Shown here: positions 2,720 through 45,322 of the stretch, one piece after another
Layout of the letters: each line of letters begins with the position of its first letter
Position numbering within the stretch: the stretch's first letter is position 1
DNA from: a virus
Lineage: Duplodnaviria; Heunggongvirae; Uroviricota; Caudoviricetes
IMG/VR virus record: IMGVR_UViG_3300045988_150439
Length of the DNA stretch: 64,000 bases
Reading direction: 5' to 3' (one strand)
Position numbers and translations under genes: made by a program
Notes under the pieces: generated by a model
What the model was told of the DNA's origin: nothing
Seen by the model: only the letters and a program-made list of their open reading frames with translations
Databases searched by the model: none

Positions 2720-3241
2720 TTATTCTTCGAACAATTTTTCGATAGATTTTGTAGGATAGAACAAAGAACGCTCGTTGTTACCAACCAGCTGGATAAAGCC
2801 TAAACTTTTATAAAACGCCTTGGCTTTGTCATTTAACGCCTCAACGAAAAGTCCATGAATGCCTACAGCAAGAGATGCATTGTACACAACGCGCATTGCA
2901 TGTGTTACAAGCATTGAGCCAAATCCTTGACCTTGAAGGGACTTGTCCAAAGCCAGCCTACCCAAAGTAACACTTGGAACATTCCGATAAGGAACCTTCT
3001 TTTGTTTGCTTCTTGAAGGTAAGGACTCCTTTTCAAAACAACTACCTGACAAAGTGTAATATCCTAACACTTTTGGCCTTTCTTCTTGAGTGCAAAGCAC
3101 ATAAGCACGAAGAATTTTTCCCTCATGCTGCCTTTTTAAGTGGTTGGCTAAAAAGGCGTTTAGTGACTCTTCGCCGCAATCAAAACCGTTTAGATCATAA
3201 TCTTTCTCTCCAGAGAAAATCTCTATCGTTGTATTGCTCAC
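2720..3241 (-). CDS. GNAT-family acetyltransferase toxin (TacT/AtaT-like)
   Basis: 173 aa, GNAT motif QGQGFGSMLV; GTG start 8 nt after the stop of a DUF1778-type gene on the same strand. Confidence 0.7.
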   Translation of the reverse strand: MSNTTIEIFSGEKDYDLNGFDCGEESLNAFLANHLKRQHEGKILRAYVLCTQEERPKVLGYYTLSGSCFEKESLPSRSKQKKVPYRNVPSVTLGRLALDKSLQGQGFGSMLVTHAMRVVYNASLAVGIHGLFVEALNDKAKAFYKSLGFIQLVGNNERSLFYPTKSIEKLFEE

Positions 3242-13409: not shown

Positions 13410-13696
13410 GCAATTTAACTTCTTGGGAATGGTGGTTGGCCACCTATTTCTTAGCGACCGGAGTCGCATTCGCCTTTTACGTAGGTCAGTTAGTCGTAAA
13501 ACTGTTGCTTATTAAATTTGCTAGTCATAAACGTATCGATGATGGTCTGTGGCGTCTTGGTACCCTGGTGGAAACTCGCTACGGGCAACTTAAGGAGAAC
13601 GAAACCATTACTATCCAAGCGAAACGATTCACTGCCACCATCACAAGAACACCTGATCGTAGAGTGGCCTTGATCAAAAAAGTCACAACCGAATAA
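13406..13696 (+). CDS. membrane protein (96 aa)
   Basis: ATGA overlap with upstream gene; N-terminal TM helix WWLATYFLATGVAFAFYVG. Confidence 0.45.
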   Translation: MSNLTSWEWWLATYFLATGVAFAFYVGQLVVKLLLIKFASHKRIDDGLWRLGTLVETRYGQLKENETITIQAKRFTATITRTPDRRVALIKKVTTE

Positions 13697-14086
13697 AAAC
13701 ATGGTGATAAGTATTTACTTACTTATCTTTTATGTATAAGATGACTTTGTTTTCGTTGAGACGCGACTGTTTGAACTTAAATACAAGTGCAAACGAAGAA
13801 GTCTATCTGGCAGTAGCCTAATAAGCCAAACACCAGCGAGGTCAGTTTCCAGCCTCGTTACCGAAATGGGACACACTGAGCGAGTGTGATTGCAGAACGC
13901 AGGAGGGAACATTCATGTTCCCTCCGATGAAGTAACAGAATGGGCGGTTGGTATATTTTCAACTCCATATGACTCCCGGATTCTTAGCCACTGACCGCCC
14001 ATCCTGTTACGTCATTTTGTTCAATTATGTCGTTTATACTGGGTTAAAAAGCGGCGACGTAGCCCGGCTGGTATGGTTAGCCAGCA

Positions 14087-14208
14087 CACAACGTTGAGGC
14101 CATTACATTTTTATCAATTCTAAGGTTCTATTCACAGAGATACCGGCGAGCGTTGATATGTAACATGTTGGGCAAACATTCAATCGGAGTAGTGGCCTCA
14201 ACGTTGTG
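14087..14208 (+). ncRNA. long hairpin unit 0 (possible small stable RNA)
   Basis: Perfect 16-bp inverted repeat cacaacgttgaggcca / tggcctcaacgttgtg enclosing ~90 nt; ORF-free region upstream of tRNAs. Confidence 0.3.
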
Positions 14209-14474
14209 AAGACGGGATTGTTGTGTAGGTTTAACCACTGTTGCCATTGGTGCCTGTTTTCACAACAAATGATTCCATACATCACATTGTATAAATTACA
14301 AAGTAGGTGCTGTCCTCAGAAACATCATCTACTTAAAGATTTTGCCTTCTACTATTGAGCGAAGTCGAAAGCGTCTGGCACTAACGAAAAGTGCAAGTAG
14401 CGGTGCGTTTCCTGGCAGAAACTAAACCGTCGCGATTGGCACTGTTGAGTAATAAATACTGGCAGTGCTGAATT

Positions 14475-14549
14475 GATGGTGTAGCTCAGCGGTAGAGCAG
14501 TTGGCTGTTAACCAACTGGTCGGTGGTTCGAATCCACCCACCATCGCCA
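14475..14549 (+). tRNA. tRNA-Asn (anticodon GTT)
   Basis: Cloverleaf by eye: acceptor gatggtg/caccatc, D-arm gctc..gagc, anticodon stem gttgg/ccaac loop ctGTTaa, T-arm ggtgg-ttcgaat-ccacc, encoded CCA. Confidence 0.85.
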
Positions 14550-14551
14550 AT

Positions 14552-14627
14552 GCCGGTTTAGCTCAGTTGGTAGAGCACCTGCCTTGTAAGCAGGATGTCA
14601 GCGGTTCGATCCCGTTAACCGGCACCA
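14552..14627 (+). tRNA. tRNA-Thr (anticodon TGT)
   Basis: Acceptor gccggtt/aaccggc, anticodon stem cctgc/gcagg loop ctTGTaa, T-loop ttcgatc, encoded CCA. Confidence 0.85.
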
Positions 14628-14720
14628 ACACAACAGGTAAGAGCATTGGGCGAATCGGCGATACTGACCCACAAGCCCGTAAATCGATAGAGTCAGACCA
14701 GTGCTCTTACCGTTGTGAGG
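14626..14720 (+). ncRNA. long hairpin unit 1 (possible small stable RNA)
   Basis: 15-bp stem acaacaggtaagagca / tgctcttaccgttgt (one mismatch) enclosing ~55 nt; shares stem-base cacaac/gttgtg with units 0 and 2. Confidence 0.3.
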
Positions 14721-14764
14721 AAGTGCAGCTCTTTGAAGCAACCAGAAGATAAGCATCTGGCTTC

Positions 14765-14850
14765 ACAACACAACGATAAGATCATTACGGTTAATCGTCG
14801 TTCATGTGCACAATGACTGGTCGAAAGGTAGTGATCTTACCGTTGTGATG
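14765..14850 (+). ncRNA. long hairpin unit 2 (possible small stable RNA)
   Basis: 16-bp stem cacaacgataagatca / tgatcttaccgttgtg (one mismatch); 3' flank cttaccgttgtga[g/t]gaa shared with unit 1. Confidence 0.3.
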
Positions 14851-14947
14851 AATGCACAGGCTGATGTGCCGCAACTACAGTAGTGCGCGCTTTGCGGGGC
14901 TTGCTACAACCCTGTGTCGGAGTTCAGCACCGACCATCACAATAGCT

Positions 14948-15034
14948 GGAGAGTAGGGAGCATGGTGCTCAAGCGGTCTTGAAAACCGTCCCATTGCGCA
15001 AGCGATGATGGTTCGATTCCATTACTCTCCGCCA
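14948..15034 (+). tRNA. tRNA-Ser (anticodon TGA), type II
   Basis: Acceptor ggagagt/actctcc, anticodon stem gcggt/accgt loop ctTGAaa, long variable arm, T-loop ttcgatt, encoded CCA; about 87 nt. Confidence 0.75.
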
Positions 15035-15148
15035 GACACAGCGTTGAGCGGTTTGGCCTTTTAATCACCCAGATTAAGACTCCGCTAACATAAACCAGAC
15101 CGCTCAACGCTGTGATAGACAATTACGGCAGACGTTCTTAACCATAGC

Positions 15149-15177
15149 TTGCTAACATCCTAGCAACACTTTTTTTC
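15149..15177 (+). terminator. rho-independent terminator after tRNA cluster
   Basis: Hairpin ttgcta-acatcc-tagcaa followed by cacttttttt. Confidence 0.55.
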
Positions 15178-15189
15178 AGCGCAAAATTC

Positions 15190-15210
15190 AAAGGGGCTTC
15201 GGCCCCTTTT
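15190..15210. terminator. bidirectional terminator hairpin
   Basis: aaaggggc-ttcg-gcccctttt, flanked by A/T runs on both strands, between plus-strand tRNAs and the minus-strand cassette. Confidence 0.55.
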
Positions 15211-15212
15211 CT

Positions 15213-16424
15213 TCAAAAAAGTTTTATAAATTCATAATTCTGGTCAATTAAGGATTCAATACACACCATGCAAAAATCTACATCGTTAAAATCAGGTGTG
15301 TAATATTCATCCTCATAACATTCATTTAGACCTTCAATCAATTTTTCTTTAAAAACTCCCCACGTTTCAATATGAACCATTTCCATATAAGGCGCATGTG
15401 TATGTACTTGCAATACATCCCAGGTGTCTATAACCTCGATCCGCGGCTTGCAATTAATTTTTTCTAAATATGCCCTCCCAGAATTGTAAATTTTCGACAT
15501 TGATGCCCCAAAACCTGATGGTTGGTAATGAGTGTAAATGTCATAAATTTTTTGTCCTATTCTAGGGAGTTGAGAAGCATTGGATATTTGTGGCGAATGA
15601 AAGTATCGCTCTATGGAAGAAAACGCAGAAACATTAACTAGAGTAATCGTATATGGTGCTAAAGTTCTCTCGTTCAAATTTCTACATAAAATAGCAAACC
15701 CATGGCTATTAGTCTTTTCACCGTCTGAGGACATTTTTGCCATGCTGGCTTTAATAACATTCAATTTCGAATGTAAACGAGAAGTGGAAGTCGGTTGATT
15801 ATACATTTCATCATCATACAAACATATATGAAACCCGCCAAGATGACGAAATGAGAACTTGAGTGCTTCTTCCGCAATAACTAATTTATTAATATCTAAA
15901 GGAGTAAGTGATACGTTACCTTGTAAATCATAGCAAGGTTCTAAACATAGAAAGTTTTTCTTCTGCCACACAATCATATTAAAAATAAAGTGTCTAACCA
16001 AAGGTGGCCAGTCAGGTGATATAAGTACATTGGTAATATCTCCATCAGACAAGTATGACAAGTAACTTTTTAGTTCCGCAGCATATGCCACTAGCTCAGT
16101 TCCAGCTTCCCTTGTTGGTGTTGAAAAATTTTTTAACTCAATAAGAACTAAGGATTCATTCTCTGTTGAATAAGCAACGACATCAGGTCTTAATATCTCA
16201 GATTTTGTTGCTGAGATATTTTCATCATCTGTCATTAAATGTAACAATGTTATATTCTTTAAACAAAACTGATAACTCTCCTTAATTTTTTTCTCTTCGG
16301 GTCTTTTCGGATTAAATTCATTTAATTTATCAATATTGATGATTGAATTATATAATCCATCTTGATCAGATAATTTGTCAATTATCCAATTTTGCATTTC
16401 CTTTTCGCTTAAAAATATTGACAC
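15213..16424 (-). CDS. 403-aa protein with PD-(D/E)xK-like nuclease motif; distal gene of AT-rich two-gene cassette (AbiGii position)
   Basis: GTG start; PDVVAY...SLVLIELK resembles a D..ExK restriction-endonuclease-fold motif; very AT-rich; 26 nt from upstream gene. Confidence 0.45.
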   Translation of the reverse strand: MSIFLSEKEMQNWIIDKLSDQDGLYNSIINIDKLNEFNPKRPEEKKIKESYQFCLKNITLLHLMTDDENISATKSEILRPDVVAYSTENESLVLIELKNFSTPTREAGTELVAYAAELKSYLSYLSDGDITNVLISPDWPPLVRHFIFNMIVWQKKNFLCLEPCYDLQGNVSLTPLDINKLVIAEEALKFSFRHLGGFHICLYDDEMYNQPTSTSRLHSKLNVIKASMAKMSSDGEKTNSHGFAILCRNLNERTLAPYTITLVNVSAFSSIERYFHSPQISNASQLPRIGQKIYDIYTHYQPSGFGASMSKIYNSGRAYLEKINCKPRIEVIDTWDVLQVHTHAPYMEMVHIETWGVFKEKLIEGLNECYEDEYYTPDFNDVDFCMVCIESLIDQNYEFIKLF

Positions 16425-16450
16425 TAATTAGGCTCCCGTTAAACCAAAAA

Positions 16451-17272
16451 TTAAAAATCTTGCTTTACTTTATCCATAGTCAGAATTTTGCTAATAATTG
16501 AAGATTCAAATCCATCTAAACCTGAGAGAAAGTTAATTAGCTTTTGGATATGTTGTTCTTTAGGTATAAGTATATATTTTATATCATTGAACTCAAAATC
16601 AATGCCAAACTTTGAAAATTTTGAGCTAATTTTTGCTTTGTCATCAGAAGTGATAACACGCTCCAAACTCAGACTAGGCCATAAATCACCAATAAAAGGA
16701 GCTGGCACATAACGCCACTCTTTCTCGTCTGCATATATATAATTCTCTATTGTTTTATTATCTTTTCGCTCTAGCTTGCCTCTGTAATTTTTCATATAAC
16801 GCAGTAAATTATATAGATCAGAATATTCTGCTTTCAATTTCTCAAACTCTATTCTGTTTTTGGTATCTAAATTTCCTCTAGCCTTCCAAAGCGGCACCAA
16901 CTTTTTTTTAATAAGTCGAATTCTGGCATTGTATTTAGAAAATATTTCACTGCTCTTATTCATATATAGAACTGGGTGTAGACCTTTCTTTTCCGCCCAA
17001 GACTTAGTTAGCCCAAGACCGAATTCCCCATATTTTCCGCTATGATCTCTGATTTGTGATAGTTTTATGTCACAAAACGATACCATTGGTACTGCAAACC
17101 TCCTGCGTCCCCCGACTCCTCTTATTTCCTCGCGAGCAAGAAATGGTTTAAAATATTTCTCAGCCAATATGCTATAGAAAGCATCTTCGTTTTTTGTAAA
17201 ATGAAACAACGTGGTTGGATGAAGACTATAAACAGATTCAACATTCGCATCAGGATTTTCAAGGATAGTCAT
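16451..17272 (-). CDS. AbiGi-like protein (candidate abortive-infection component)
   Basis: ORF 16451..17317; probable ATG 17272 follows AAGGTG. N-terminal LFHFTKNEDAFYSIL...PMVSFCDIKL...YGEFGLGL pattern resembles what I recall of AbiGi proteins; AT-rich. Confidence 0.4.
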   Translation of the reverse strand: MTILENPDANVESVYSLHPTTLFHFTKNEDAFYSILAEKYFKPFLAREEIRGVGGRRRFAVPMVSFCDIKLSQIRDHSGKYGEFGLGLTKSWAEKKGLHPVLYMNKSSEIFSKYNARIRLIKKKLVPLWKARGNLDTKNRIEFEKLKAEYSDLYNLLRYMKNYRGKLERKDNKTIENYIYADEKEWRYVPAPFIGDLWPSLSLERVITSDDKAKISSKFSKFGIDFEFNDIKYILIPKEQHIQKLINFLSGLDGFESSIISKILTMDKVKQDF

Positions 17273-17561
17273 TTTACACCTTGTGGAAAGCCAGTTTAGT
17301 TCTGTAAATAGTATCACACGACAGGCGGCTATTCTTCTATCAATAAAGGATAGGTAAGCACTTACTTTTTACGCGCGTTAATTGTATAGTTCTTTCGGAT
17401 ACTCACTTGAAAGGACTCAATATGGGAAATAAATGTAAACATGCGCGTCGCGCATCTCGTCAGGTGCAGAAGTCAAATCCATACATTCACGAGCACTACC
17501 ACCTCAGCTCTTTCACTAACCGCTACACGTTCCCCAGCGAAGCGCATAACGAGGCAAGGCA

Positions 17562-19104: not shown

Positions 19105-20208
19105 ATGAAAAATAGCTTTGACAGAGCACGCGCAGCGGAGAACACCTCAAAAGAGGCGATTGAGTATCTCGAAAGAGCATCTCAAATGCAGGCCGTTATG
19201 ATCTCGCAGGTTAGCAATGACATGAGATTCTCAGACGCATTCATGTTATTCACTCGCTTATCTCTGCTAATAACAAGACGTCGGCCAGAGATCGCTGTTC
19301 ACTGTATTTTGATACATGTTTTGCCGCACATTGCTGATGTAAAAGTAAGTGACATTAATAGGTTCATGGTGAACCAACTGGTCAACCCACTAATACTGGA
19401 TGGCAAAATTGTTATGGGCCGCCGCGTTTTCTCTCTGATGAAGCAGTTCCTTAGCTGGTGCGCCTTCCAGGGGATGATAGACGTGTCACCGTTAAACGAT
19501 ATGTCACTTAACAAAGTTGCCGGTGGCGCAAAGCCCACACCTCGCGAGCGGAAGCTGACCGACGCAGAGGTATGGGTGTTCTGGAATATATGGGACTACT
19601 TCAATGTGTGTGCTGGTACAAAATGGGCGGCAAGGCTATGTCTTGTATCCGCAAGACGACCTGATGAAGTACTGCGGGCTAAAAAAAGTGAGTTCAATCT
19701 TAAGCGTGGGGTTTGGAATCAAGGCAAAAGAAACAAGTCAGCACGTGAGCATTCGCTGCCTTTAAGCACATTAATGCGCACATGCATTGAAGAGTTGTTC
19801 GAATACGGTAAAGATAGCCAGTGGCTCGTTCCTTCGAATAAAAAAATCGGGAAAGACCTTCCTATGTCTAAAGTGGCAATAGCCCAGGCATTACGTCGTA
19901 TTCTGGAACGACCAGAACTGATGGAGCTTGAGCCATTTACACCCCGAGATTTGCGCCGTACTGCGCGTAGTTACTTCCCAGCATTAGGCATAAGCCAGGA
20001 GGTATCACGTAAAATCATGAACCACAGTCTTGAGGGGATAGATCGGGTCTACGACCGGCACGATTATATGGACGAGATGCGAGACGCCTTAGAAAGTTTC
20101 TCGACGTACATCGCATCAATCGTAGAGCAACCGGATTTAGACGAAATTGACCACAAATTTAAGGGAGATCGTCTATCAACAGAGCTTATTCGTGTAAATT
20201 TTTCATAG
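19105..20208 (+). CDS. tyrosine site-specific recombinase
   Basis: 367 aa; C-terminal catalytic region with RDLRRTARS, HSLEG, and Tyr motif VYDRHDY. Confidence 0.7.
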   Translation: MKNSFDRARAAENTSKEAIEYLERASQMQAVMISQVSNDMRFSDAFMLFTRLSLLITRRRPEIAVHCILIHVLPHIADVKVSDINRFMVNQLVNPLILDGKIVMGRRVFSLMKQFLSWCAFQGMIDVSPLNDMSLNKVAGGAKPTPRERKLTDAEVWVFWNIWDYFNVCAGTKWAARLCLVSARRPDEVLRAKKSEFNLKRGVWNQGKRNKSAREHSLPLSTLMRTCIEELFEYGKDSQWLVPSNKKIGKDLPMSKVAIAQALRRILERPELMELEPFTPRDLRRTARSYFPALGISQEVSRKIMNHSLEGIDRVYDRHDYMDEMRDALESFSTYIASIVEQPDLDEIDHKFKGDRLSTELIRVNFS

Positions 20209-28322: not shown

Positions 28323-28593
28323 AGAATTATGGCGCTTGTTGAGGAAGTCACTCCTCTTACGCACTTTGTTTTGCCATGCCGGCAGTTAGCTTCTGCCTTT
28401 GACTATTCATGCGGCAACCCCGCATTTCGCCACAATGGGCAATTCACTTTTATGGAATAAACTGGCCGTTGTGTCGATTTAATTAGCATGGCCTTACCAT
28501 GCTAATTTATTCAACTTGTAAAATCCTACAAATCTATCCACTCAGGCTTACACCGTCTTCGTTATTGTAGAAATGAGGATCATCAGCGTTGAA

Positions 28594-28809
28594 TCAGCTT
28601 AGAGCAACGACATTTGCTGCTGCTGGGCCTTTAGCCCCATTCTCGATAGAGAATTCGACCTGCTGGCCTTCTTCCAAAGTGCGGAAATTATTACTCTGAA
28701 TTGCCGAAAAATGTACAAAAACATCTTTACTGCCATCAGCAGGAGAAATAAAGCCAAAGCCTTTATCAGAGTTAAACCATTTTACTAAACCAGTCATTTT
28801 ATTAGACAT
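28594..28809 (-). CDS. cold-shock protein (CspA family)
   Basis: ORF 28594..28905; probable ATG 28809 follows AAGGTAG. About 71 aa with RNP1 KGFGFI and RNP2-like VFVHF. Confidence 0.8.
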
Positions 28810-29138
28810 AGATACTACCTTCTTAATTTTGTGAGCCACATAGTGCGGCGAGAATTTGATCTGTATAGATTGGGACTTACTTAGGCACTTAAGGAGGAGA
28901 CTCACGAAGAAGGGAAATCAGAAGATAACACTGAACTGAGACTGCTTTACTAAAACTGCTTACATAAGGTCTGTCTTGCAAACCAACGATGCTATTAACG
29001 CATACCCCTTCTTTTCATGCAACCTTTATTTTTCAAAGATAACTAATTTTTGTCACCATTGGTTTAGTAAACGTTAACGAACCAGACGATGCCAGACACC
29101 TTTACAGAGAACAGATGCCCGCCAATTGGCGGGCATCA

Positions 29139-44589: not shown

Positions 44590-45322
44590 ATTAAGCCGCT
44601 CGCAGTTTTTGCAGGTATTTGCAGTGATGCAGTCGATAAAACTGATCAATGGGCATACTTCCAATGGTGCGGCTCCACGTATTCTGTGGGGCAGCAACAA
44701 TATTGACGGAGTACAATTCGCCGCGTTGCTTGGTCTAATATCCGAGACGCCATTGATGCAAAGTTTGAAATCACTACCACCTGGATGTATTGCGCCGATC
44801 CTGATTAATCCTTTTGTTGAGGGGGGATATCTTCCCAACGTCGGGCCTGGGTTTATTGCATCCCATGAAACTGAAGATCTTAACATTAATAGCGAAGGGT
44901 TCTTTGGGGGAATGGGTGCGCATCACTGTATGGCTTTCACGAACCTTATTCGACTTGCCAATAAGCGGGTTGATAGTTTGGCATCGCCAGGTGATGCTTT
45001 TACTGGTTTCCTTATCCAAAGGAGGGATAAAAAGTACAGTGCGGACAAACTACAGTTTGTTGGTAAGTATGGGGAAATGGTGGAAATCGAACTTCAGCTC
45101 CCTCATGTTTTAGCAAACGATAGTGCAGACAGTCGGAGGCTGTTGGGCATCATGCGTCATTTCATAGCAAGTGGCGTTAAACATGCCGTAGATAAACGTG
45201 TCACGCAGGAAAATGAGTATTCAGACTTTGCAAACTATCCCCAACCAACGTTGCAAACGGCAGTAGTAACCAATTCGTTGGAGGCGAGATTATTGGAAAA
45301 CCCTATATGGGGAACATGGTAA
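44579..45322 (+). CDS. hypothetical protein
   Basis: 247 aa ORF overlapping sbcC stop. Confidence 0.45.
   Translation: MSFKLSRSQFLQVFAVMQSIKLINGHTSNGAAPRILWGSNNIDGVQFAALLGLISETPLMQSLKSLPPGCIAPILINPFVEGGYLPNVGPGFIASHETEDLNINSEGFFGGMGAHHCMAFTNLIRLANKRVDSLASPGDAFTGFLIQRRDKKYSADKLQFVGKYGEMVEIELQLPHVLANDSADSRRLLGIMRHFIASGVKHAVDKRVTQENEYSDFANYPQPTLQTAVVTNSLEARLLENPIWGTW

Follow-up and report, generated by a model that had tools for sequence, protein, structure and literature searches.

The DNA analysed here, a stretch of 64,000 nucleotides that we call the window and identify as an SSU5-type phage-plasmid, carries on its plus strand a region poor in open reading frames (ORFs) that encodes three transfer RNAs (tRNAs) and five long hairpins, H0 to H4. 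These hairpins are members of a real structured-RNA family that lies outside Rfam and that recurs in P1-like, SSU5-like and lambdoid phages, where it includes a hairpin of the lambda late leader. From the sequence, we propose that positions 13745-15215 make up a single protein-free non-coding RNA island. The explanation that we favour, and to which we give an even chance, is that H0-H4 are RNase III stalks at which a polycistronic non-coding precursor would be cut, and that they also serve as recombination joints. The most novel item of the island is a tag RNA at 13745-13900, apparently derived from a transfer-messenger RNA (tmRNA); this element, the most unusual in the region, was missing from a preliminary description of the window, which had drawn attention to the tRNAs and to three of the hairpins.

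Over 13600-15300 the Escherichia phage Cyrano is 98% identical to the window and CMS-2020a is 96-97% identical, and parts of the same interval are also found in Klebsiella phage-plasmids and in Salmonella phage SSU5. P1, P7, D6 and other punaviruses share 86-93% identity over 14471-14941, a segment that in those phages lies inside the C1-controlled ban operon.

A hairpin family under selection for pairing

The five hairpins have arms of 20-23 nt, and each is much more stably folded than its dinucleotide shuffles, with z values between -4.5 and -10.7. In H1-H4 the outer helix comprises 19-20 pairs, or 20-23 bp when the arms are extended. H0 (13926-14016, plus strand as are all the hairpins; z -5.75) is closed by a GUAACAG...CUGUUAC base and directly follows the pseudoknots of the tag RNA, a position also held by the P1 hairpin at 2214-2308 of our P1 locus (L002) and by the first CACAACAGGUAAG hairpin of the lambdoid copies. 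H1 (14087-14208; z -5.89) has a stem of 20-23 bp around a 76-nt loop; among its orthologues in SSU5, KPC53 and locus L149 the loops diverge, and compensatory changes (GCC/GGC, ACC/GGU, AUC/GAU) preserve the pairing. The GUUGUG of its 3' arm can alternatively pair with a downstream CACAAC to form a hairpin at 14203-14266, as detected by an inverted-repeat scan and by folding, and the same alternative pairing is available in lambda (553-566 with 634-647 of locus L173). H2 (14629-14717), recovered by the inverted-repeat scan and the shuffle z test, starts 1 nt beyond the CCA of tRNA-Thr, with the A at position 7 bulged out; its loop sequence reappears in KPC53 within a different stem (L005 2185-2245). 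H3 (14766-14850, core 14769-14847; z -4.52) is absent from Cyrano and KPC53, and H4 (15037-15114; z -10.66), which lies 2 nt 3' of the CCA of tRNA-Ser, is kept in both.

The preliminary description had placed three of these hairpins correctly (H1 at 14087-14208, H2 at 14629-14717 and H3 at 14766-14850, with z of -4.5 to -5.9), gave their stems as 15-16 bp where we find 20-23 bp, and missed H0 and H4. The cacaac...gttgtg stem base that it saw as shared is borne out by the counts, as the stem-base 12-mer CACAACGKTRAG, with at most one mismatch allowed, was found 8 times in the 64 kb, where chance would give 1.1, and seven of the eight fall in this locus. Its suggestion of an Rfam scan yielded two of the tRNAs and nothing for the hairpins. 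Gathering-threshold scans of the window and of 15 related loci assigned the hairpins to no Rfam family, and E-value scans of the region and of P1 gave for them chance matches of microRNA (miRNA) type only.

Across some 50 phage loci we collected 63-64 distinct family hairpins. P1 has four units (L002 2214-2308, 2659-2746, 2883-2982 and 3162-3240), and when P1 is compared with the window, the spacers between units match whereas the hairpin interiors differ. The same hairpin units occur in lambdoid viral contigs, in HK620 and in a Klebsiella siphophage; the late regions of the Escherichia coli K-12 prophages DLP12 and Qin have no family hairpins. For the covariation analysis we used 50 arm-only constructs, from which the bulged base was taken out and in which the loop was replaced by GAAA to hold the register in MAFFT. 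Stem cells in these constructs are paired in 91.3% of cases compared with 72.9% after shuffling, a percentage that is inflated because the hairpins were collected by a pattern and a folding filter; this collection procedure does not inflate compensatory changes or the asymmetry between G.U and A.C. Both sides have changed at 17 of the 21 stem pairs, and the covariation score is 0.554, compared with 0.197 for shuffles (none of 500 reach the observed value) and at most 0.144 for slid partners. Pairing is thus conserved across relatives, the point that the preliminary description had proposed to check by covariation.

Read in the orientation of the tRNAs, the outer helices include only 9 A.C or C.A mismatches but as many as 86 pairs of the type G.U or U.G, and G.U pairs occur at 14 of the 21 stem positions. 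Further, the sense fold is more stable than the antisense fold in 51 of 64 hairpins, by a mean of 4.4 kcal/mol. The G.U excess and the sense-strand stability together point to selection acting on the sense RNA, although sense single-stranded DNA would formally give an equal bias. Two irregularities recur in the family: in 33 cases an A bulges out at position 7, just behind CACAAC, and in 25 cases there is a U.U mismatch.

Some family hairpins hold a tRNA-like core, as seen in P1 (L002 2659-2746) and in two lambdoid contigs (L074 and L090). The core consists of a 7-bp acceptor-like helix that opens with A-U and then U.G, a hairpin GCGACGUCGGAGAUCGCC and a canonical T-arm GGUUCGAAUCC, and it has no free CCA end. 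In L090 the unit with this core sits just upstream of the tag element, which is the place of the acceptor piece in a permuted tmRNA.

Two further observations concern the P1 copies. The spacer behind one family hairpin there (L002 3237-3356) gives a sub-threshold match to the Salmonella small-RNA candidate STnc100 (33.4 bits, E 3.8e-5), and this type of leader may in part have turned up already in Salmonella prophages, as an RNA associated with Hfq. On the minus strand, the annotated P1 genes plp and upl (L002 2629-3198) cover tRNA-Thr, three family hairpins and the conserved spacers in antisense; their lengths shift between P1 and RCS47 with the hairpin insertions and deletions, which makes these ORF calls probably spurious.

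Probable processing stalks, possible cassette joints and other readings

The functional reading of H0-H4 draws on lambda. At 44786-44864, in the late leader between pR' and S, lambda has the hairpin GCACAACAGGTAAGAGCATTG...CCAGTGCTCTTTCCGTTGTGC, which begins 9 nt after the U-tract of tR' and which we found in 56 phage records. The arms of H2 match those of lambda at 39 of 40 positions (5' arm 20/20, 3' arm 19/20), and both hairpins have the same bulged A and U.G wobble; their loops are unrelated. H0, H1, H3 and H4 are more distant members of the covarying family than H2. A perfect duplex of at least 20 bp within a long transcript is a classic substrate of host RNase III, and the hairpin at 44786-44864 is the sole duplex of this length in the lambda late leader downstream of tR', which is why we interpret H0-H4 as stalks for RNase III. 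The title of Daniels et al. 1988 (reference 49 in PMC7547250) reports RNase III processing sites in the lambda Q-dependent late transcript. The two lambda GenBank records have no annotation of RNase III sites, and our literature search returned no description of such sites in the lambda late leader or of RNAs of the P1 ban operon. In our reading, the 1988 sites may lie within 44786-44864.

The position of the hairpins relative to the RNA genes fits such a role. A hairpin follows each run of RNA genes. In 19 of 26 loci one begins just 1 nt downstream of tRNA-Thr, in 14 of 16 the distance from tRNA-Ser is 1-2 nt, and in KPC53 a hairpin overlaps the CCA of tRNA-Asn. We infer co-transcription of the island as a rightward precursor that would carry, in order, the tag RNA, H0, H1, tRNA-Asn with tRNA-Thr, H2, a spacer, H3, a second spacer, tRNA-Ser, H4 and the terminator. 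Host RNase III would cut the double-stranded stalks of 20-23 bp and so divide the precursor into units. Cleavage at a stalk would separate the final tRNA of a run from the RNA downstream, with a short 3' trailer left for exonucleases to trim, and would also free the tmRNA-like RNA; the 5' ends of the tRNAs would come from RNase P.

Several points weigh against this reading. The basal CACAAC(A)GGUAAG / CUUWCCGUUGUG sequence is strongly conserved, and because RNase III has little sequence specificity, cleavage leaves the conservation of the stem base unexplained, so that recent horizontal transfer, recombination or another binding partner would be needed to account for it. Cyrano does without H2 and H3. 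Maturation of the tRNA 3' end could be impeded, not helped, by a stable stem that begins only 1-2 nt beyond the CCA. Finally, the tRNA-like core in some loops, such as that of the second P1 unit (unit b), implies that the stalk may present a cargo in some copies.

In the favoured explanation the arms would have a second role, at the level of DNA, in which their conserved sequences provide homology patches of 20-25 bp for the gain, loss and exchange of tRNA genes and loop inserts. The relatives differ by whole modules. Cyrano lacks 14634 to about 14945 (H2, a spacer, H3 and a spacer), with the junction at a direct repeat ACCA(A/T)CACAA, and KPC53 has neither tRNA-Thr nor the H3 module, with junctions at CACAAC. 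The tRNA sets of relatives are Asn; Asn-Ser; Asn-Thr; Asn-Thr-Ser; Asn-Tyr-Thr-Ser; and Arg-Tyr-Thr-Ser. Lambda has a single hairpin at a site where, in lambdoid contigs, tmRNA-like and tRNA modules are flanked by a hairpin on either side. In the Klebsiella phage ZX4 (L177, about 2010-2050) a cut-off tRNA 3' end (TTCGAATCCTGTCGCGGGAACCA) is fused directly after CACAACAATAA, a deletion junction at CACAAC.

Such patterns also lend themselves to a reading in which the hairpins act mainly on DNA, as recombination or cassette-boundary sites (folded strands like those of attC, or microhomology joints) that mobilise cassettes of an RNA gene plus a hairpin. A hairpin after each run of RNA genes, insertions and deletions that end at CACAA(C), the cassette-like tRNA content, and modules flanked by two hairpins in phages where lambda has one would all be accounted for. 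The architecture of the hairpins recalls integron attC sites, in which a variable apical part is combined with a second box, an extrahelical base and a core of conserved AAC...GTT. The ends of the lambda hairpin, GCACAAC/GTTGTGC, fit RYYYAAC/GTTRRRY at 6 of 7 positions each, and family members are 66-134 nt long. In the family as a whole, AAC/GTT hardly varies, and 33 of 63 hairpins have a bulged A behind the first box; the purine/pyrimidine pattern fits at only 5-6 of 7 positions. However, there is no integron integrase here: the sole tyrosine recombinase of the window (19105-20208, 367 aa) gives a weak, generic NCBIfam integrase-domain match and hits no integron-integrase model, and lambda and P1 are not known to encode an IntI. 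The G.U excess and the orientation always follow the transcribed strand, even if single-stranded DNA of the top strand would be biased alike, and slippage or short-homology recombination would produce junctions at repeats of 6-10 nt without the help of a dedicated system. As the main function of the hairpins we consider this rather unlikely; a DNA-level role is compatible with the stalk reading, not exclusive of it, and recombination at the arms is part of what we propose there.

Alternatively, each hairpin could be the gene of a stable small RNA, or a scaffold for a functional apical RNA, with some copies acting as tRNA-like mimics. The tRNA-like core in the loops of the P1 unit at L002 2659-2746 and of L074 and L090, together with the recurrence of the H2 loop in KPC53, speaks for it. 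In the window, however, the loops of H1, H3 and H4 are free of tRNA-like motifs and differ from those of closely related phages, H2 and H3 are missing from Cyrano despite its 98% identity, and Rfam gives only chance miRNA-type matches, so that we think this reading improbable. The preliminary description had offered stable RNAs or processing elements as its two possibilities. Processing is supported in part, by selection on pairing, by position at tRNA ends and by the lambda homologue; stable RNAs are not, as far as the copies in the window are concerned, given that loops are swapped and that Cyrano lacks H2 and H3.

The motif CACAAC(A)/GUUGUG also has a place in small RNA (sRNA) biology, and trailers or spacers of the island might sponge the host sRNA GcvB in the manner of AgvB, or the GU-rich arms might mimic GcvB. 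CACAACA is the GcvB R1 target consensus and is used by the prophage anti-sRNA AgvB (Tree et al. 2014, PMC4104026). It occurs at 14261, 14629 and 14764, and 10 of the 40 CACAAC sites of the window lie within 13684-14847. The 3' arm with its flank, CUUACCGUUGUGAUGAA, resembles the GcvB sequence CUUACGGUUGUGAUGUU. The corresponding region of lambdoid prophages, downstream of pR', is also where AgvB-type sRNAs map, but those are primary transcripts in their own right, 51-60 nt long, with a single-stranded CACAACA at the 5' end and a Rho-independent terminator (PMC4104026), and within the hairpins the motif is base-paired. Stem bases with CACAGC, CGUAAC or CAUAAC pair and yet lose the match to GcvB, which argues that pairing is the selected feature. 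We give this reading little credence. An identification with AgvB itself was rejected, as the CACAACA at 14629 is the stem base of H2 and no terminator follows any of 14261, 14629 and 14764.

That the hairpins are chance palindromes or a dispersed mobile element, such as a miniature inverted-repeat transposable element or a unit like the repetitive extragenic palindromes, is highly improbable. They are palindromic units of 80-120 bp with similar ends, as such elements would be. Yet within the 64 kb seven of eight stem-base matches fall in this one locus, no target-site duplications were seen, and the arms covary, unlike the conserved repeats that transposases bind. A scan of 185,579 genomes for the exact arm pattern (CAACGTTGAG..CTCAACGTTG) retrieved almost only unrelated palindromes, for instance Nostoc repeats.

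A tmRNA-like tag RNA

The element at 13745-13900 (plus strand), recognised from weak Rfam matches and from an alignment of 23 relatives, resembles a tmRNA that has no tRNA-like domain. It comprises a 5' relic, a resume-codon context, a degradation-tag frame and two pseudoknots. The relic, seen in the alignment, is that of the 5' tRNA-like-domain motif GUUUUCG..GCGAC (13749-13767). A tmRNA-type resume context precedes the tag frame at 13789-13824, which reads GCA AAC GAA GAA GUC UAU CUG GCA GUA GCC UAA UAA, that is, ANEEVYLAVA followed by two stops (GCAAACGAAGAAGTCTATCTGGCAGTAGCCTAATAA). All relatives seen keep a ten-codon tag frame, with synonymous and conservative changes, and their tags include ANDNQYLAVA, ANEDTYLAVA, ANDDLMMVAA (P1), ANDDLMMAAA (P7), ANEEMYLAVA, ANDEQFLAVA, ANDDLMLAAA and ANDNVFLAVA. 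Synonymous switches are frequent (UAU/UAC, UUC/UUU, CUG/UUG, GCA/GCC/GCU and GCC/GCU), and the stop codons switch too. We rejected an ordinary small ORF as the source of this frame: the window does have an in-frame ATG at 13741, yet in both P1 and SSU5 the frame is closed by stops shortly before the tag.

Downstream of the tag lie two H-type pseudoknots. Pseudoknot A (13836-13866) pairs GCGAGG (13836-41) with CCUCGU (13853-58) in stem 1 and UUUC (13846-49) with GAAA (13863-66) in stem 2; among the 23 sequences both sides have changed at all 4 pairs of stem 2 and at 3 of the 6 pairs of stem 1. Pseudoknot B (13872-13900) pairs CACACU (13872-77) with AGUGUG (13883-88) in stem 1, which is the short CACACU-GAGCG-AGUGUG hairpin near 13875 that the preliminary description had noticed and which can now be placed within a conserved pseudoknot. 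Its stem 2 (GCG with CGC at 13898-900) is weak in this lineage and clear in P1 and lambdoid copies (GCCC/GGGC, UCCCC/GGGGA), and across the family the two helices of pseudoknot B, helices 3 and 4 of the element, are 90% and 87% paired. Taking both pseudoknots together, 90.2% of cells are paired compared with 76.9% after shuffling, both sides have changed at 11 of 19 pairs, and the covariation score is 0.368, compared with 0.159 for shuffles and at most 0.171 for slid partners. A pseudoknot 1 upstream of the tag was not established.

Rfam gives sub-threshold matches over the tag and the next pseudoknot, to tmRNA_permuted (14-21.7 bits; threshold 47) and to beta_tmRNA (14.4 bits; threshold 84). 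A profile of the 23 elements matches permuted phage tmRNAs called by ARAGORN, from the resume context through the first pseudoknot, with E values down to 3e-6, the tag part of this match being there by construction of the scan. The order in those called tmRNAs is the 3' tRNA-like domain, a spacer, the GGGG..GGnUUCGAC 5' domain, pseudoknot 1 and the tag. ARAGORN made no tmRNA call in the window or in any of the P1-like, SSU5-like and lambdoid loci. A tRNA-like domain was sought both upstream, as in permuted genes, and downstream in H0, and neither place has an acceptor stem, a G3.U70 pair, a T-arm or a CCA end; outside the three tRNAs, the window has no T-loop motif, and hairpin loops with a T-arm were seen only in some of the P1 and lambdoid copies.

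By blastn the tag element has relatives in 317 phage records, among them P1, lambdoid phages, HK620, Felix O1-like phages, in which it lies within the tRNA cluster, and 45-kb Klebsiella siphophages. HK620 (L178 1188-1895) has the tag element, together with one family hairpin, in the interval from pR'/qut to the annotated late terminator tQ, a location that would put them in a constitutive, terminated leader RNA of lysogens, analogous to lambda 6S RNA or StxS. Viral tmRNA surveys list only mycobacteriophages, Bacillus phage G and the mini-tmRNA of DS6A, which consists of the tRNA-like domain only (PMC4131195, PMC11915505), and neither the literature nor Rfam yielded a description of a tmRNA-like tag element in P1, lambdoid phages or Felix O1.

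The element at 13745-13900 appears to derive from the coding piece of a permuted tmRNA and is apparently undescribed. More tentatively, and with well under even confidence, we suggest that it represents a type of phage RNA that is widespread, descends from the coding piece of a two-piece tmRNA, has lost the tRNA-like domain, keeps the two pseudoknots and a degradation-tag frame that would be translated, and would be excised by the CACAAC stalks. In infection or in lysogeny, such a tag RNA could hijack or reprogram the trans-translation of the host, or compete with it.

A separate observation comes from the Escherichia phage nataliec (Felixounavirus; L176), in which two unannotated tRNA-like sequences (2702-2783 and 2925-3010), neither of them called by ARAGORN, lie just downstream of the tag element in the tRNA cluster. 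The first has an acceptor stem CGGGGCG/CGCCUCG with the alanine identity features G3.U70, A73 and CCA, a T-arm, a CU-UCU-AA loop and no normal D-arm. A tag element followed by a tRNA-like gene with G3.U70, A73 and CCA in Felix O1-like phages hints at a new split tmRNA architecture.

The island in context and its known counterparts

The tRNA cluster of the island is ordinary and is already annotated in relatives. ARAGORN calls exactly three tRNAs in the region, all on the plus strand: tRNA-Asn (GUU, 14475-14549), tRNA-Thr (UGU, 14552-14627) and a class II tRNA-Ser (UGA, 14948-15034). Rfam supports the first two, and the class II tRNA-Ser matches the Rfam Sec model at 44.6 bits, just under threshold. 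The preliminary description was right to see a tRNA cluster in an ORF-poor region and to suspect the ORF calls of being spurious: ORFs in 13700-15210 reach at most 83 aa and overlap tRNAs and hairpins, and none of the seven tested has a significant Pfam match (best E 0.033, below threshold). A reading of the region as Y RNA-like (YrlA) was dropped, as the Rfam YrlA matches are sub-threshold and fall on the tRNAs themselves.

Between these elements lie several further features of the plus strand. The inverted-repeat scan found a perfect 11-bp hairpin, GGAGGGAACAU-UC-AUGUUCCCUCC, at 13902-13925, and SSU5-like relatives keep a hairpin at this position with changed sequence. A conserved spacer at 14718-14768, with CACAAC at its end, is near-identical in P1 and KPC53; a second, at 14848-14943 (UGAAUGCACAGGCUGAUG ... 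CGGAGUUCAGCACCGACCAUCACAA), is near-identical in P1 (L002 2981-3073), and spacers akin to it come after hairpins in lambdoid contigs. The 266 nt from H1 to tRNA-Asn (14209-14474) contain blocks that are invariant in SSU5-like relatives (AAAUGAUUCCAUACAU). A hairpin in this segment, CUGGCAC..GUGCAAGU, covaries with CGCCGG..CCGGCAAGU of P1, which lies directly 5' of the P1 tRNA-Asn, and another hairpin lies at about 14434-14470.

For the ends of the island, the sequence offers a putative promoter and a candidate terminator. A sigma-70-like TTTACT, a 17-nt spacer and TAAGAT at 13714-13742 (plus strand) were picked by eye and are kept in the alignment of SSU5-like relatives; a strict promoter scan does not report them because only 8 of 12 consensus positions match. 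The upstream genes on the plus strand, a ligase and small ORFs, could equally feed the island by read-through. At 15194-15215 (plus strand) we read a hairpin like that of an intrinsic terminator, GGGGC-UUCG-GCCCC followed by UUUUCUUC, which would be common to the convergent AbiG genes. Rfam has a partial match of terminator type at 15190-15210, and a simple terminator scan was silent on 15194-15215.

Downstream, the convergent minus-strand genes (15213-17317) are an AbiGi-family gene (16451-17317) and its 403-aa partner (15213-16424), where Cyrano has glutaredoxin-containing genes. This replacement relative to Cyrano marks the flank of the RNA island as a variable hotspot with a defence pair of abortive-infection type. 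Elsewhere in the window, 28569-28987 (minus strand) is a full-length match to the cspA thermoregulator 5' untranslated region (Rfam RF01766, 183.9 bits), which implies a cold-shock-protein gene and an RNA thermosensor on the phage-plasmid.

As this region illustrates, stretches of temperate enterobacterial phages that pass as ORF-poor are dense arrays of structured RNA that annotation and Rfam miss. The hairpin family connects three model systems, the late leader of lambda, the ban operon of P1 and phage-plasmids of the SSU5 type, and would act as a signal for the processing and exchange of tRNA cassettes. Lambda-P22 hybrids, P22 and Mu depend on the trans-translation pathway, and a tag RNA without a tRNA-like domain would, if functional, be a new phage route to ribosome rescue, one that includes lytic phages of Felix O1 type.

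Known systems resemble the island in part. In ribosomal RNA (rRNA) operons a long RNase III stalk encloses a functional RNA, and in the tRNA cluster of phage T4, Pragai and Apirion reportedly described in 1981 RNase III processing involving the species 1 and 2 RNAs. As in those precursors, the window would have long duplexes of flanking sequence in a polycistronic stable-RNA precursor, and, as in T4, a phage tRNA cluster with RNAs other than tRNAs; at that level the analogy with T4 drawn in the preliminary description is reasonable. Unlike rRNA stalks, those of the window have mostly unconserved loops, and the functional RNAs lie between them. Integron attC sites share with the family imperfect hairpins of similar size, an AAC/GTT core, an extrahelical base, a variable apex and a place after each single cassette; the window differs in that its cassettes would be RNA genes, its strand bias matches the transcript, the core match is partial and no integron integrase is present. 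AgvB shares CACAACA and the phage region downstream of pR', but the motif of the window is paired in stems and AgvB is an independent transcript. For a tRNA spacer that acts as a sponge, 3'ETS-leuZ is a precedent.

The tag RNA has its nearest counterparts among tmRNAs. With permuted tmRNA it shares the resume context UAAAU-GCAAACGA, a 10-codon tag AN[DE]x..[YF]LA[VA]A followed by a stop, a UUACC(R)AAA pseudoknot linker and a place beside phage tRNAs; unlike permuted tmRNA, it has no acceptor stem, G3.U70, T-arm or CCA, and keeps only the GUUUUCG..GCGAC relic. The mini-tmRNA of mycobacteriophage DS6A, which is a tRNA-like domain only, has been put forward as a means of interfering with trans-translation in the host (Hudson et al. 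2014, PMC4131195). Both would be partial tmRNAs borne by a phage, but DS6A has the tRNA-like domain without a tag, whereas the window has the tag and pseudoknots without the domain. For the hairpins, the lambda late-leader hairpin is a homologue that has the same orientation, stands likewise in a long leader and lies directly 3' of the end of a structured RNA; it differs in that lambda has one copy, with no tRNAs or tag RNA, whereas the window has five copies placed between RNA genes.

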